DNA of 64,000 nucleotides from an uncultured virus (IMG/VR IMGVR_UViG_3300015366_000220). Lineage: Duplodnaviria > Heunggongvirae > Uroviricota > Caudoviricetes. Position 1 is the stretch's first letter; every line of letters starts with the position of its first letter. Made by a program: the position numbers and the translations under genes. This document shows, in pieces, positions 34,915 through 39,125 of the stretch. The notes beneath the pieces are model-generated. The model was not told the origin of the DNA and did not search any database. It saw only the letters and a program-made list of their open reading frames with translations. The DNA is taken from the IMG/VR virus record IMGVR_UViG_3300015366_000220. One strand, 5' to 3'.

Positions 34915-36330
34915 TTAAGAATTATCTACGACATTCCATATCACACCATCCTCAACATAGCCATCTAATCTTGGGTCTGATGATCCATCTATAAATATGG
35001 GAGAAGGTAATGATTCATCTTCAATTTGCTGCATTCTATCTCTATATAGCTTTTCTTTCATATTGACATTGGTTAATTCCGAGAAAAATTGCTGGTTTGT
35101 GAGCCATGCAAATAAAACTAAACACATCACGGTATCATCATTGGAACCTTCCTCCGCCTCAAAACTATTATTTTTGGATATAAAGGTTGATAGTTCTGCG
35201 ATAGTATCAAAATCAGTTATCAATAATTTCTGATCTTCTATTAAGTTCTTTAGGATAGAGCATCCAAGGCGTTTAACGGATTTGGTTGTCCTGATCCCAC
35301 GGAATGATTTATTACCATATCCCCACGTAACAGATATCTTTTTTTGTATTTCTACTGTGGATAATATGTTCTCATAATCATATTCATCAAATAATATATC
35401 AATCACTTGTTGCCCATTATCATTAATTTCACCCAGAACATATGCTTGATTATAATAATCACACATCTTCTTAATTACAGCAGGATATACCATGGGACTC
35501 ATTTCATTATCCCTGAAAGTAGCCACTAGTTTATATGGTATCTCTGTGCAGTCTATTAGACTTATTGCATGATAATCCAACCCCTTTCCTCTGGATGTAT
35601 CCACAACAGCAACATAATTATGTCCTTTTACTGGATTTTCGTATATTTTTATTCCATTGTCTGATAAGTGTATTGGTTTGACGAATGCCAGAGACTTTAG
35701 TGCTCTTGCAGATATTAATGTGCCAACACTTCCCATGAATTCAACTTCAACTTCCTGTAGATATTGTTGTTCTCCCAATGCAGCTCTTTGTTCATCCGCC
35801 CATTTTTGGGTTCTGCCGGGCACATCACTCCAATGCACGGAAATAGGCGTAAACCCATTAATACCCTCAACTGCTTCTGTCCACCTCTTGTAGAAATGGT
35901 TCATACCACACGGGGTTGATGTGATAATAATCTTTGTCGTTTCACCAGATGATATTGTCGGATATACGGATGTAAAGAATTCATCTGCTAAATTAGTAGG
36001 CACGAATGCAAATTCATCAAGATATAGGCAGTTATGTGATACTATACCGTTAGAAACATATGAGTGTGTATCTTCGACATTTAGGAAATCGTATACTGGC
36101 TCTGGATCGATTTCTGTTATTGATTTTATCTGTTTACCACCATATACATATTCGTCGGATTCCAAAAATCCTGCTTCAATATATTCTCCATATGCATCCA
36201 TTATAAGATGTTCTGGAGTACAACAAATACACTCTCCGCAGTAAAAATCTATTCTTATTAGTGTCTGTGGGATTCCTCTGGAGAGAATACCATCAAATGA
36301 TTTGAACCCTTGCTCTGTTAATATTTTCAT
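34915..36330 (-). CDS. 17: Terminase large subunit gp17, C-terminal gene: 100-aa IntC of split intein 2 plus C-extein (Walker B and nuclease domain)
   Basis: ...GIVSHN|CLYLDEFAFVP, ITSTPCGMNHFY, VDTSRG, NDDTVM. Confidence 0.93.
   Translation of the reverse strand: MKILTEQGFKSFDGILSRGIPQTLIRIDFYCGECICCTPEHLIMDAYGEYIEAGFLESDEYVYGGKQIKSITEIDPEPVYDFLNVEDTHSYVSNGIVSHNCLYLDEFAFVPTNLADEFFTSVYPTISSGETTKIIITSTPCGMNHFYKRWTEAVEGINGFTPISVHWSDVPGRTQKWADEQRAALGEQQYLQEVEVEFMGSVGTLISARALKSLAFVKPIHLSDNGIKIYENPVKGHNYVAVVDTSRGKGLDYHAISLIDCTEIPYKLVATFRDNEMSPMVYPAVIKKMCDYYNQAYVLGEINDNGQQVIDILFDEYDYENILSTVEIQKKISVTWGYGNKSFRGIRTTKSVKRLGCSILKNLIEDQKLLITDFDTIAELSTFISKNNSFEAEEGSNDDTVMCLVLFAWLTNQQFFSELTNVNMKEKLYRDRMQQIEDESLPSPIFIDGSSDPRLDGYVEDGVIWNVVDNS
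36031..36330 (-). mobile_element. IntC half of split intein 2
   Basis: Starts at its own ATG; block B CTPEH, block F VYDF, block G SHN followed by Cys+1. Confidence 0.88.
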
Positions 36331-37337
36331 TTTGGAGCAAACCCTCTAACCCAACCATCCGGAACATCTTCAGGTTTACACATCATTTTTTCTTTCGTTT
36401 CTGCGTTATAACAATATACAAATCCTTTATTGGATGCCTGTCTACCTTTTGCTGCTGCGCTCATTTTGTTTCTGGATTCCTCTGATCGACGCATTCCTCT
36501 ATGTTTTTCCGCAGTTTTTTCTATTTTTGTTGGGTTTTTGTTTATCTTATCTATATGTTCTTTAGTTTTCTTTTTACCTGATAATGATGTGGAAATCTTT
36601 TTCTTATGGTCTTCTGACTTCGGCACACCCAAAAATCTTTGTTTTGAAATTATTTTTTGGTTACGTCTTTGATCCAATATATTAGAAAATTTTTCTTCTG
36701 CCATTTTTTGTTTCATTTCATTACAGAAATACACATCTTTGTCTGGATTTCCTGCTAGACTTATTATCTGATTCTTTGTTAATCCGGTTGCGCGTATAGC
36801 ATCCACCATACTCAAATATGATTTTCCTTCTAACATGATACCATCACCAATATGCTGCCTTGTTGATTGCACCTCTGAAATCATTTTTTTGGTTGTGTCT
36901 GTGTGCTGCTTTCCATAGAATGGATTGTTTTCACCATACATAATTCTGACGTTTCCACCAATTGCAATATTATATGTATCTTCGCGGAGAGTGAATTCTT
37001 TGGTGACAATACTTGCCTCATATTTTTCCGCTTCTTCTTTACAATCAAACACACCTAATATTTTTTTATCGAATGCGCTTATACCGTATTTTTCAATGGC
37101 AAGTTTGATTAATTTACCAGATCCCATATATCCATCATTTATATTATTTGTCTTATGGAAACCAACATATATTTTACCATTCTTGGTATTTGTTATTTGG
37201 TAGACTGTGTATTTCATATCAGATTGTTCCCTAGAGCATACTTCGGTGAGTTTGCTTTTATTTAGGATATTTGATATCTCTGTGTAATAATATGCATCAC
37301 TATACTCAATACATACTTTAGTGTCGTCCGTAACGCA
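36327..37337 (-). mobile_element. IntN of split intein 2 (Cys1 at 37337) fused in frame to a GIY-YIG/NUMOD3 endonuclease (Met at 37217)
   Basis: CVTDDTKV block A; TVYQITN..NGKIYVGFHKT...GYMGSG; NPFYGKQHT and KSEDHKKKIS NUMOD3-type repeats; ends at TGA overlapping the IntC ATG. Confidence 0.85.
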
Positions 37338-39125
37338 GTTTATACTGAATCCTCTGATCGCACTCGATGTTGTTGATGTTGCGATTATCTGGCATTTATT
37401 TTCTAATTCAATATTACCTTTATTCCAAACCACTACACCCTGCTGCATCCACATTGGTAGTGATTCGTATGATCTTTTGATTCTATCCAGAATTTCTCTT
37501 GCAGTTGCTGCTTTATGTGCTAATAGAGCAACAGTTTTTTCTTCATTAAATAATACATACCACAAGAAATACCCAACTAATGTGGAAGTATTATGGGATA
37601 ATATTCCATCCGTATATAATCTATGATCATTAGAAGCAACAGTCAGGTCATACATATTTGAGCTGTTTGTGGTTTCTATTACATCAACCACCAAATCAAC
37701 CCCATCCTCTGTTAATATTTTACTGTGATTTGGTATTAAATTTTTAGTGAATACTTGATTGTAATTGGAATCAAAAACAATATGATCATCTGCGCATATT
37801 AATGATTTACCGCTTTTAGTTTTAATTATCCATTCTTTATACTTAATGGTTTTGTGTATATGTGTGATTGGCACCCAACCAGTATCAGATAATACTTCCC
37901 AATTTTTAACTCCAAATGAATTGATAAATTTTCTTTCTACGTTGTTAGAAAGATCAGGCATTCGTCCAGTGCTTGTTTTCTGTTTGCTTTGAAATTTATC
38001 TCTCTTATTCTCAAGACTTGATAACCATCCACCATCAAGGAATGATCTCTGGCATGTTCTTTCATTTGATTCGACGGACGCATGTGGTGCCAATATTCTC
38101 CATCGAATTCTATTATTTTTTTCTTGTTTATATCTATGAAATCTGGAAGTATAGTTTTCCCATTCGAAAGCGTCAGACGATATTCTTTGTTCTGATAATT
38201 GATCATATCTTCCCTCTCCCATGTGGCAAAATATACCATCTCTGAATGATAATGTTCCATTATATCCTTGAATAATATTTGGGATATTTTGGAATAATTT
38301 TGCTTTTTGAAATTCTTCGACCATCTTTTCTGTCGATCCGACCAGATCTCTTTCCCAATCTCTTCCCCATATTTCTCTATGCATATTTCCAGCGAAAACG
38401 TAGTCTGTCTGTCTGATAGAAGCTGTTTTGCAAGAGTCTCGTCCCCATTCGCTTTCTTCATCCAATATTCCAGAGTGGTTGTTGAGTTTCCATTTTTCCT
38501 TCTGGTATTTGCTACTTTTTTGTGTATTTCCGTATCTATTGTACCCACAAATTTTTTGGAGAATGGTGAATACTTCCCTCCATGTTGATATGCTGGATTC
38601 TTTTCTCCCTTGAATCTTTCCGAATATTGGTTCATCAAATATTCGGACACTAGTTGGCTGTTTGGATGTTGTGTTTTGTATTCTTCTGTTGTTATCTTGT
38701 GTGTATTCCTTAAATGGGAATTCAATTGTTTCATCTTCTTTCCGCACATCAGACATTCTACTAAGGTGTTCATAAAAATCTCCTATTGTGATTTCATATA
38801 TTTTATTGGTGATATTATTCTTCACCTTTACCTTAGTATTTATAAAAAAACATTTTCCAACTTGTCTTCCCGCCTTTATTATTATCCTGCGTTCTTTTTC
38901 TATAGTATCAATTGCATCTTTCTGGAAAGGATATAACTCAATATTGACATATCCTCTATCCAGAGTGATCATTTTTACATATTTTTCAATAAAATAATGA
39001 GGGTCTTGTGAGCATCTGGCATATTCCAAAACCTGATCTTCAGTCATTGGTATATTTACACCATCCCTCTTTAGGCGTGGATTACCAAGATAATGTTTAA
39101 TTGCTGTTTTTATTTCTGGTATCAT
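36327..39125 (-). CDS. 17: Terminase large subunit gp17, N-terminal gene: N-extein, intein 1, middle extein, IntN of intein 2, GIY-YIG endonuclease
   Basis: YLGNPRLK, DPHYF, LYPFQ, GRQVGK|...|TST Walker A, WNKGNIELEN, SAIRGFSIN|C. Confidence 0.93.
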   Translation of the reverse strand: MIPEIKTAIKHYLGNPRLKRDGVNIPMTEDQVLEYARCSQDPHYFIEKYVKMITLDRGYVNIELYPFQKDAIDTIEKERRIIIKAGRQVGKCFFINTKVKVKNNITNKIYEITIGDFYEHLSRMSDVRKEDETIEFPFKEYTQDNNRRIQNTTSKQPTSVRIFDEPIFGKIQGRKESSISTWREVFTILQKICGYNRYGNTQKSSKYQKEKWKLNNHSGILDEESEWGRDSCKTASIRQTDYVFAGNMHREIWGRDWERDLVGSTEKMVEEFQKAKLFQNIPNIIQGYNGTLSFRDGIFCHMGEGRYDQLSEQRISSDAFEWENYTSRFHRYKQEKNNRIRWRILAPHASVESNERTCQRSFLDGGWLSSLENKRDKFQSKQKTSTGRMPDLSNNVERKFINSFGVKNWEVLSDTGWVPITHIHKTIKYKEWIIKTKSGKSLICADDHIVFDSNYNQVFTKNLIPNHSKILTEDGVDLVVDVIETTNSSNMYDLTVASNDHRLYTDGILSHNTSTLVGYFLWYVLFNEEKTVALLAHKAATAREILDRIKRSYESLPMWMQQGVVVWNKGNIELENKCQIIATSTTSSAIRGFSINCVTDDTKVCIEYSDAYYYTEISNILNKSKLTEVCSREQSDMKYTVYQITNTKNGKIYVGFHKTNNINDGYMGSGKLIKLAIEKYGISAFDKKILGVFDCKEEAEKYEASIVTKEFTLREDTYNIAIGGNVRIMYGENNPFYGKQHTDTTKKMISEVQSTRQHIGDGIMLEGKSYLSMVDAIRATGLTKNQIISLAGNPDKDVYFCNEMKQKMAEEKFSNILDQRRNQKIISKQRFLGVPKSEDHKKKISTSLSGKKKTKEHIDKINKNPTKIEKTAEKHRGMRRSEESRNKMSAAAKGRQASNKGFVYCYNAETKEKMMCKPEDVPDGWVRGFAPK
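37937..38773 (-). CDS. Zn-finger plus Vsr/DUF559-like (EDxHD-type) endonuclease, overprinted in the +1 frame inside intein 1
   Basis: CLMC..HLRNTH finger; PDF...IIEFDGEYWH...RD...GYQVLRI.E; AGGAG RBS; TATAAATA at 38844-38837. Confidence 0.88.
   Translation of the reverse strand: MNTLVECLMCGKKMKQLNSHLRNTHKITTEEYKTQHPNSQLVSEYLMNQYSERFKGEKNPAYQHGGKYSPFSKKFVGTIDTEIHKKVANTRRKNGNSTTTLEYWMKKANGDETLAKQLLSDRQTTFSLEICIEKYGEEIGKEIWSDRQKRWSKNFKKQNYSKISQILFKDIMEHYHSEMVYFATWEREDMINYQNKEYRLTLSNGKTILPDFIDINKKKIIEFDGEYWHHMRPSNQMKEHARDHSLMVDGYQVLRIREINFKANRKQALDECLIFLTT
38837..38844 (-). promoter_or_regulatory. T4-type late promoter inside the intein 1 coding sequence
   Basis: TATAAATA 63 nt upstream of the nested endonuclease ATG. 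Confidence 0.65.

Follow-up and report, generated by a model that had tools for sequence, protein, structure and literature searches.

The large terminase (TerL) gene of an uncultured T4-like phage of the Caudoviricetes is broken by an atypically split intein whose short N-terminal fragment (IntN) continues in frame into a GIY-YIG/NUMOD3 homing endonuclease. The gene lies on the minus strand of a stretch of 64,000 nucleotides (nt) from IMG/VR record IMGVR_UViG_3300015366_000220, the whole of which was analyzed and is called the window here. The C-terminal intein fragment (IntC) and the remainder of the terminase are encoded by a second open reading frame (ORF), the start codon of which overlaps the stop codon of the first. 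The split of this intein, termed intein 2, into two genes is real, and its fused layout is beyond chance, as it recurs in 14 other loci of the 56 classified. Taken as a whole, the arrangement is quite probably a trans-spliced, atypically split TerL intein with an IntN-nuclease fusion, the two halves of which would be produced by coupled translation and which would spread as a homing cassette.

Anatomy of the split terminase gene

Two overlapping ORFs, flanked by a small-terminase-like gene and a tail-sheath gene, encode the large terminase. Their parts are given below in the order of translation (aa, amino acids).

39125-36327, minus strand: ORF A, 932 aa, comprising extein 1, intein 1, extein 2, IntN, linker and nuclease
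38853-39125, minus strand: TerL extein 1, 91 aa, with the Walker A motif GRQVGK at its end and aligning to the intein-free TerL of loci L002 and L004
37590-38852, minus strand: intein 1, 421 aa, uninterrupted and in frame with TerL, from Cys1 (CFFINTKV...) to ...ILSHN, followed by Thr+1
37338-37589, minus strand: TerL extein 2, 84 aa, with RGFSIN at its end
37248-37337, minus strand: IntN of intein 2 (CVTDDTKV...NKSKL), 30 aa, with block A as its sole intein block
37218-37247, minus strand: IntN-nuclease linker, 10 in-frame codons up to the nuclease Met, with AGGGA at 37232-37228
36327-37217, minus strand: GIY-YIG/NUMOD3 homing endonuclease (I-TevI-like), 296 aa, in frame with IntN, with its TGA at 36329-36327
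36327-36330, minus strand: ATGA stop/start overlap of ORF A and ORF B, the ATG of ORF B being 36330-36328
36330-34915, minus strand: ORF B, 471 aa, with 100 intein residues, then the Cys+1 that opens CLYLDEF and 370 further terminase residues
36031-36330, minus strand: IntC of intein 2, 100 aa, with blocks B (CTPEH), F (VYDF) and G (SHN)
34915-36030, minus strand: TerL C-extein, 371 aa plus stop, beginning with Cys+1 of CLYLDEF (Walker B)

The original prediction, made from the DNA letters and their translations, had described a Cys1 after RGFSIN, a short intein start, an in-frame GIY-YIG/NUMOD3 nuclease ending at TGA, and an ATGA that opens a new gene with a 100-aa IntC and the Cys+1 of CLYLDEF; the coordinates and the Pfam matches agree with this description. 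The Cys1 codon of intein 2 occupies 37337-37335, directly after RGFSIN, and 335 further in-frame codons lead to the TGA. At the other end of ORF A, the ATG of extein 1 overlaps the stop of an upstream 149-aa gene.

The three exteins sum to 91+84+371 = 546 aa, the terminase length that had been predicted, and the joined product is 69.9% identical to the 540-aa TerL of L002 over 538 columns, with a gap at neither extein junction. Comparison with the uninterrupted TerL of the relatives L002 (540 aa, 70% identity) and L004 (547 aa) maps both insertion points exactly, that of intein 1 after the GK of Walker A and that of intein 2 just before the hydrophobic strand of Walker B. The C-extein contains Terminase_6N and Terminase_6C (Pfam) and shares about 48% identity with cyanomyovirus TerL. 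The record, 125.7 kb long and about 73% complete, yielded a single TerL.

A sequence search with IntC against the Protein Data Bank (PDB) gave CatC (6dsl_B) as the best match, with an E value of 3e-7 over residues 1-99 of 100, followed by the weaker matches gp41-1 (E 0.017) and VidaL (E 0.055). CatC is an engineered consensus of atypically split TerL inteins, and the identity of the window IntC to it is modest. The residues T38 and H41 (block B), D81 (block F), H99, N100 and Cys+1 (C101) are invariant in 11/11 related proteins, and Cys1 is invariant in all 10 aligned IntN sequences. The 30-aa IntN, when taken to end at NKSKL, agrees in length with contiguous mini-intein relatives, in which 27-33 aa stand ahead of the part equivalent to IntC. 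On the basis of its sequence and split position, intein 2 is grouped with AceL-TerL, GOS-TerL and Cat as an atypically split class 1 intein, in keeping with the type that had been assigned to it. For atypically split inteins, the excerpts of PMC11766414 give an IntN of 25-37 aa and an IntC of about 104 aa.

The nuclease portion of ORF A displays a GIY-YIG domain at residues 638-709 (23.7 bits, Pfam cut-off 22.6) and a NUMOD3 match (41.8 bits, cut-off 20.4), and the tail of ORF A falls into PHROG 314, 'homing endonuclease', with an E value of 1e-40. The catalytic motif and the C-terminal DNA-binding module are invariant, with the motif residues conserved in 13/13 aligned nucleases. An AlphaFold model of IntN plus nuclease has a mean predicted local distance difference test score (pLDDT) of 72.8, with values of 82-92 in the GIY-YIG domain. 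A Foldseek search with this model yielded no row at E <= 1e-3; the top four rows are DNA-binding or catalytic domains of I-TevI (E 5e-3 to 0.047, target template modeling (TM) score 0.43-0.63).

The reading of two separate genes does not depend on a single assembly. Over 13,413 nt, another IMG/VR record matches the window at 100% identity, and a 1001-nt contig from a public run spans 36002-36989 with 8 substitutions, which assign it to another strain, and 0 gaps. Pieces from three other runs (X2, X3 and X4) do not reach across the junction, and a look for RNA data sets covering the stretch gave none. Among 11 relatives in the protein databases, 10 begin 0-13 residues from the IntC start; the eleventh has the intein contiguous.

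Related loci and overprinted nucleases

Seventy-nine IMG/VR loci encoding IntC relatives were fetched, and 56 of them were classified at the Walker B site. The unclassified loci comprise 9 without one of the three extein/intein matches and 14 with an IntC-like match elsewhere in TerL. Many loci are near-duplicates; 43 IntC sequences are distinct, and 13 of these come from fused loci. In the case of L040, the extein match first paired with it was paralogous; L040 is in fact a mini-intein like L039, is counted as such, and was removed from the tree. The 56 loci are distributed as follows.

Fused IntN-nuclease in one ORF (344-398 codons), with the stop at or beside the IntC ATG: 15 of 56 loci, the twin of the window and 14 others
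IntN fused to a truncated GIY-YIG: 4 of 56 loci
IntN ending after 42-51 codons, then a separate ORF: 9 of 56 loci, the separate ORF being GIY-YIG in 5 lineages scanned and a different gene in L085
Split intein lacking any insert between IntN and IntC: 4 of 56 loci
Contiguous mini-intein: 8 of 56 loci, L040 included
Contiguous intein with a short insert: 3 of 56 loci
Contiguous intein with a 750-867-nt insert: 13 of 56 loci

All nine fused ORFs that were scanned are of the GIY-YIG/NUMOD3 type, and the fused nucleases are homologous to free-standing GIY-YIG genes at the same site (36-53% identity to the nuclease of the window); free-standing genes of the same nuclease lineage occupy this site in L029 and L042-45. 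In the IntC tree, the fused rows fall within one 18-row group alongside a few derived states. The nuclease tree, in which IntN remained on 5 of 16 rows after trimming and L045 was likewise untrimmed, mirrors this grouping. The terminal branches of both trees are long, about 0.4-1.4 substitutions per site, for which reason the fused state is taken to be old. Among the fused loci, the linker from NKSKL to the GIY motif occurs in at least five lengths (11, 12, 14, 15 and 17 codons), none of which contains a stop or breaks the frame.

Where the end of IntN (xINKSKL) is encoded, at least 11 of the 15 fused loci have an exact TATAAATA, which we take to be the T4 late-promoter consensus, 29-41 nt before the nuclease Met. 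Over the window as a whole this motif is not over-represented (9 found, 10.8 expected). The internal nuclease Met is kept in 13 of the 15 loci, and L018 is without it. From a CTAAATA box at 37265-37259, the AGGGA in the linker and the Met at 37217, all of which are present, the original prediction had suggested that separate production of the nuclease is possible as well, a suggestion that gains support from the exact TATAAATA at the position of this box in the fused loci. Because the box lies in DNA that encodes IntN, the cassette looks like a formerly free-standing homing gene in which the stretch from promoter to start codon is now translated.

At the junction with IntC, the fused loci have ATGA in 11 cases; of the other four, two overlap by 1 nt and two are separated by a 5-nt spacer. 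The conserved element is the start codon at the stop; the codons preceding the stop vary (AAA, TTA, ATA, GGT and others), and a slippery site is not shared. In 12 of the 15 fused loci, no Shine-Dalgarno core is found 4-12 nt before the IntC ATG. An AGGA lies 7-8 nt before this ATG in L028 and L050-52, two lineages in which the fused nuclease ends far upstream. In these same loci, L028 and L050-L052, IntN is joined to a truncated GIY-YIG of 135 or 181 codons, suggesting decay of the fused nuclease. As a separate observation, P0007, L033, L043, L046, L070-72, L074, L076 and L085 have one more intein of the same type, which sits in TerL at a third place, downstream of Walker B; this place is the sole location of the IntC-like match in the 14 loci set aside above.

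Intein 1, at the Walker A site of the window, is contiguous and harbors a nuclease gene in a different frame.

37937-38773, minus strand: Vsr-like homing-endonuclease gene, 278 aa, in the +1 frame within intein 1, with a ROS/MucR zinc finger and DUF559

Both Pfam matches of this gene, ROS_MUCR (31.9 bits) and DUF559 (27.5 bits), exceed their cut-offs. Across it the intein 1 frame has 0 stops against 14.2 expected, the minimum being 6 in 20000 synonymous shuffles, and 0 of the 99 codons that stand before AA/AG/GA codons end in T, against 59 of 178 elsewhere. An AGGAG at 38784-38780 lies 6 nt before the ATG of the Vsr-like gene, and an exact TATAAATA at 38844-38837, in block A of intein 1 (codons F-I-N-T), lies 64 nt upstream of it. 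There is an in-frame Met at 37961, just ahead of the IntC-like part of intein 1; the C part matches the gp41-1 intein (E 1e-4), VidaL (0.0085) and CatC (0.11). The expectation that the terminase needs one cis-splicing and one trans-splicing event stands as far as intein 1 is contiguous, and has to be revised in that intein 1 is not an ordinary intein, being overprinted by the Vsr-like gene.

The contiguous relatives of intein 2 show a similar arrangement. In 11/11 of those tested, a +1-frame HNH/NUMOD3 gene is present and 0 stops interrupt the intein frame, where 11.8-18.4 would be expected. An unrelated NUMOD3 nuclease (HNH-like motif by eye) is accompanied by the same stop-free intein frame in the Walker A intein of L020 (2161-3021). 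Judged by these open frames, dual coding is widespread in the TerL intein family. The contiguous Walker B inteins with a +1-frame nuclease are those of L032, L033, L034, L036, L038, L041, L049, L053, L054, L055, L057, L060 and L067, and the overprinted nuclease ORFs in contiguous TerL inteins span 225-286 aa.

Proposed expression and splicing, and alternative explanations

We propose that initiation at the TerL start yields one N-precursor, which would contain extein 1, intein 1, extein 2, IntN, the 10-aa linker and the nuclease. Ribosomes would stop at the TGA within ATGA and most likely re-initiate on ORF B, by which the synthesis of the two halves would be coupled. The floppy IntN tail would then dock into IntC and complete the HINT fold, allowing a trans-splicing reaction that would ligate ...RGFSIN to CLYLDEF... 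and free the IntN-nuclease fusion along with IntC. With intein 1 excised in cis, the product would be the 546-aa TerL. The nuclease cassette would once have been free-standing with its own T4-type late promoter, and the nuclease may be produced separately as well. TerL alleles lacking the intein are its presumed target, the cutting of which would result in homing of the whole cassette.

Coupling is suggested by the stop/start geometry, by the lack of a Shine-Dalgarno core in 12 of the 15 fused loci, and by the AGGA found where the upstream ORF ends early. A large domain at the split point should be sterically tolerated, because 13 contiguous relatives bear 250-290-aa inserts there. In the model of IntN plus nuclease, IntN forms a low-confidence tail (pLDDT 42-51) on the confidently predicted GIY-YIG domain. 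Since L018 has no internal Met and a variant strain has GTG in place of the nuclease ATG, the IntN-nuclease fusion protein may itself be a working form of the nuclease.

A number of points weigh against this explanation. We infer trans-splicing of TerL from the sequence, and likewise coupling from the geometry of the junction, with a contrast that comes from only two lineages. The Pfam model Intein_splicing matches ORF B with an E value of 1.7e-5 and 25.1 bits, below its cut-off of 35.8, and over residues 66-100 only. IntN alone retrieved no relative among the solved structures, only a chance-level row (E 4.9), as is expected for a query of 30 residues. Prediction of the IntN+IntC complex gave a score of 0.37, with 0.00 for the best of three controls; at least 86% of contacts are common to the runs, and the pLDDT of the partners is at least 58. 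The mark for this score is reached by 116 of 157 solved complexes and by 2 of 215 mismatched pairs, and scores at the mark but not above 0.60 are found in only 18 of the 157 solved complexes and in both mismatches, so that the association of IntN with IntC gains weak support from a weak pass. The score may, moreover, reflect memory, because a like complex (Cat, 6DSL) has already been solved.

Further points of this kind concern the nuclease and the junction. The promoter-like box of the window itself, CCTAAATA at 37266-37259, over the end of IntN, matches TATAAATA at 6 of 8 positions. In the variant strain, the GTG at the nuclease start (37217) is accompanied by 18 other substitutions and no indels over 36002-37360; it makes free expression of the nuclease in the phage of the window uncertain. 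The 300-aa domain on IntN might slow the association of the fragments. The last sense codons before the TGA are CCA AAA, where tRNA-Lys could re-pair in the -1 frame, and some -1 slippage at CCA AAA TGA is possible in the window. A second intact TerL is also possible, because the record is about 73% complete.

A broader scenario, which we put forward tentatively, is that nuclease cassettes at this atypical intein site have evolved two solutions to the passage of ribosomes, both of which would preserve production of the essential terminase. In the first, seen in intein 1 and 13 relatives, the nuclease would be overprinted in an alternate frame free of stops. In the second, that of intein 2, the nuclease would be in frame with IntN, and ribosomes arriving from TerL-N would cross the nuclease gene and re-initiate at ATGA, producing the halves 1:1. 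The released nuclease would stay tethered via IntN to IntC, as a non-covalent equivalent of a two-domain intein-endonuclease, and would represent a living intermediate in the acquisition of nuclease domains by inteins.

It is possible, if somewhat unlikely, that the fusion is instead a neutral by-product, in which the IntN stop was lost, most of the nuclease comes from a promoter and Met belonging to it alone, translation of ORF B does not depend on ORF A, and the precursor still trans-splices while the read-through serves no purpose. The retention of the TATAAATA box and of the internal Met in most fused loci is consistent with such a by-product, as are the free-standing GIY-YIG genes of the same lineage at the same site, and merely about 10 codons must stay open. 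The frame has, however, stayed open across at least five linker lengths and along long branches, L018 has dispensed with the internal Met, and the IntC ATG mostly goes without a Shine-Dalgarno core in the fused loci, whereas one is present where the upstream ORF ends early.

We regard as highly improbable a programmed -1 frameshift at CCA AAA TGA that would generate a contiguous IntN-nuclease-IntC precursor for cis-splicing. The window, L012 and L017/18 have an AAA preceded by A before the stop, from which a re-paired tRNA-Lys would lead to ATG being read next, and IntC is in the -1 frame in all 15 fused loci (gap 2 mod 3). L019 (TTA), L020 (ATA), L021 (GGT, then a 5-nt spacer), L024 and L031 are, by contrast, unable to slip in this way, and the feature that is conserved is the ATG at the stop. 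The 10 of 11 database relatives that are called as separate proteins starting at IntC likewise argue against frameshifting, and the common frame offset is accounted for by descent, as the trees indicate. Frameshifting, which had been named as an outcome that would overturn the split, was accordingly rejected as a general mechanism.

There is hardly any likelihood that the gene is decaying or that splicing is not needed, with the TerL halves acting as a non-covalent complex or another TerL encoded in the missing part of the genome. The incompleteness of the record leaves room for the latter, and Aeh1 NrdA is reportedly a split phage enzyme that assembles without splicing (PMC3045599). Against both versions stand the invariance of all splicing residues across the relatives, the conservation of the exteins (70% identity to L002), the position of the break inside the Walker B strand of the ATPase, and the single TerL in the record. 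A single-base mistake of assembly or sequencing near 36330, which could divide a contiguous intein with an in-frame GIY-YIG and for which the AAAA homopolymer runs flanking the junction and the frame-restoring effect of one base would speak, is effectively refuted by the identical second record, the gap-free contig of the variant strain and the 14 diverged loci of the same geometry. A group I intron was set aside, because it is the protein sequence of the intein blocks that is conserved.

Comparison with known systems

Canonical bifunctional inteins, such as PI-SceI and PI-PfuI, contain a LAGLIDADG or HNH nuclease between blocks B and F, with both junctions in frame. As in these proteins, a splicing element and a nuclease are united in one polypeptide in the window, on the N side. 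Unlike them, the nuclease is fused at the 5' junction only and at a site after block A, and the intein is still split. According to the excerpts of PMC6801210, all homing endonuclease (HEN) domains of inteins share one site.

The atypically split inteins AceL-TerL, GOS-TerL and Cat (6DSL), as well as VidaL (6VGV), resemble intein 2, in the material excerpted for them, in having a short IntN, a long IntC with blocks B, F and G, and a phage TerL host. The difference from AceL-TerL and GOS-TerL, as a review describes them, is that the window IntN has no stop of its own and continues in frame into a 296-aa nuclease.

A closer parallel is offered by the fractured genes of Dassa et al. 2009 (PMC2677866). 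In the excerpts of that paper, split-intein halves are separated by a GIY-YIG or Vsr-like endonuclease gene on the same strand, whose 3' end overlaps the downstream intein half by 6-69 bp, and putative T4 late-promoter elements precede the endonucleases; one terminase intein, with a 122-aa C part, is divided at the same uncommon position as intein 2. The window shares with these loci the broken enzyme gene, the same-strand nuclease between the halves and the 3' overlap, here the 4-nt ATGA. In the excerpted fractured genes, the N-intein half ends and is followed by 27-51 non-coding bases and a free-standing endonuclease (PMC2677866). In the window, by contrast, there is no stop from Cys1 (37337) to the TGA at 36329, and the box, the linker and the nuclease are all translated in the N-precursor.

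Out-of-frame intein nucleases are likewise known. The excerpts describe an endonuclease VII-like gene in actinophage inteins (Gosselin, Arsenault & Gogarten, bioRxiv 10.1101/2025.01.02.630785) and a nuclease in a cyanobacterial dnaX intein (Phillips et al., bioRxiv 10.64898/2026.09.14.751524). Intein 1 and the 13 contiguous relatives of intein 2 are like those excerpted cases in keeping the intein frame open over a same-strand nuclease. They differ from them in the nature of the genes (Vsr-like or HNH/NUMOD3), in their T4-like phage TerL hosts and in the atypical site after block A. Intein 1 and the contiguous relatives can be viewed as new members of the out-of-frame-nuclease class at this atypical site.

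Atypically split TerL inteins, fractured genes and out-of-frame intein nucleases are, then, already in print. No description of a natural split intein with an in-frame IntN-nuclease fusion was found in the literature searched, the coverage of which was partial, with the primary AceL-TerL and GOS-TerL papers outside it and absence not proven by it; the fused layout is shared but apparently undescribed.

Related architectures exist in cultured phages. In Shigella phage JK32 (L091, MK962753: 90076-93187), a 583-aa coding sequence (CDS) comprises TerL-N, a short IntN and an in-frame nuclease, and is followed by a 459-aa CDS of IntC and TerL-C with a 20-nt overlap. Yersinia phage phiR1-RT (L092, HE956709) encodes the same parts, its 199-aa nuclease being a gene of its own. 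These phages differ from the window in that the nuclease is TnsA/endonuclease I-like, the insertion follows ...IYIDE instead of preceding the hydrophobic strand, and the IntC identity is about 31%. Both records annotate both pieces simply as terminase large subunit.

The main value of the family lies in an evolutionary series that is open to bench testing. At one site it displays a mini-intein, a split intein without nuclease, a split intein accompanied by a separate nuclease gene, a split intein with the nuclease fused to IntN, a fused but truncated form, and a contiguous intein with an overprinted nuclease; the single TerL gene of the window carries two of these states. The series touches the old questions of how free-standing homing nucleases join inteins and of how split inteins arise. 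It raises those of trans-splicing with a 300-aa domain on a 30-aa IntN, of read-through coupling, and of the behavior of a tethered versus a free nuclease, which are testable at the bench because cultured coliphages with a fused layout, such as JK32, kaaroe and vB_EcoM_G2494, exist. The proposal that the pair could serve as a protein-ligation tool holds in that the short-IntN split inteins already in use for protein labelling gain further natural pairs of diverged sequence; as a new tool it is one more member of the already exploited AceL-TerL/GOS-TerL/Cat family.

Two further variants were observed at the Walker A site. In L062, L065, L066 and L085, a different intein begins with ALA(I/L)(E/D)TPI... 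after GK; because position 1 has neither Cys nor Ser, its sequence suggests a class 3-like intein. In L017 and L018, and for the Walker A intein alone in L012, L027, L041 and L088, intein 1 shows an atypical split, its IntN of 31-54 codons being followed by a free-standing gene. TerL of L017 and L018 is thereby encoded in three pieces, and two trans-splicing events would be needed.

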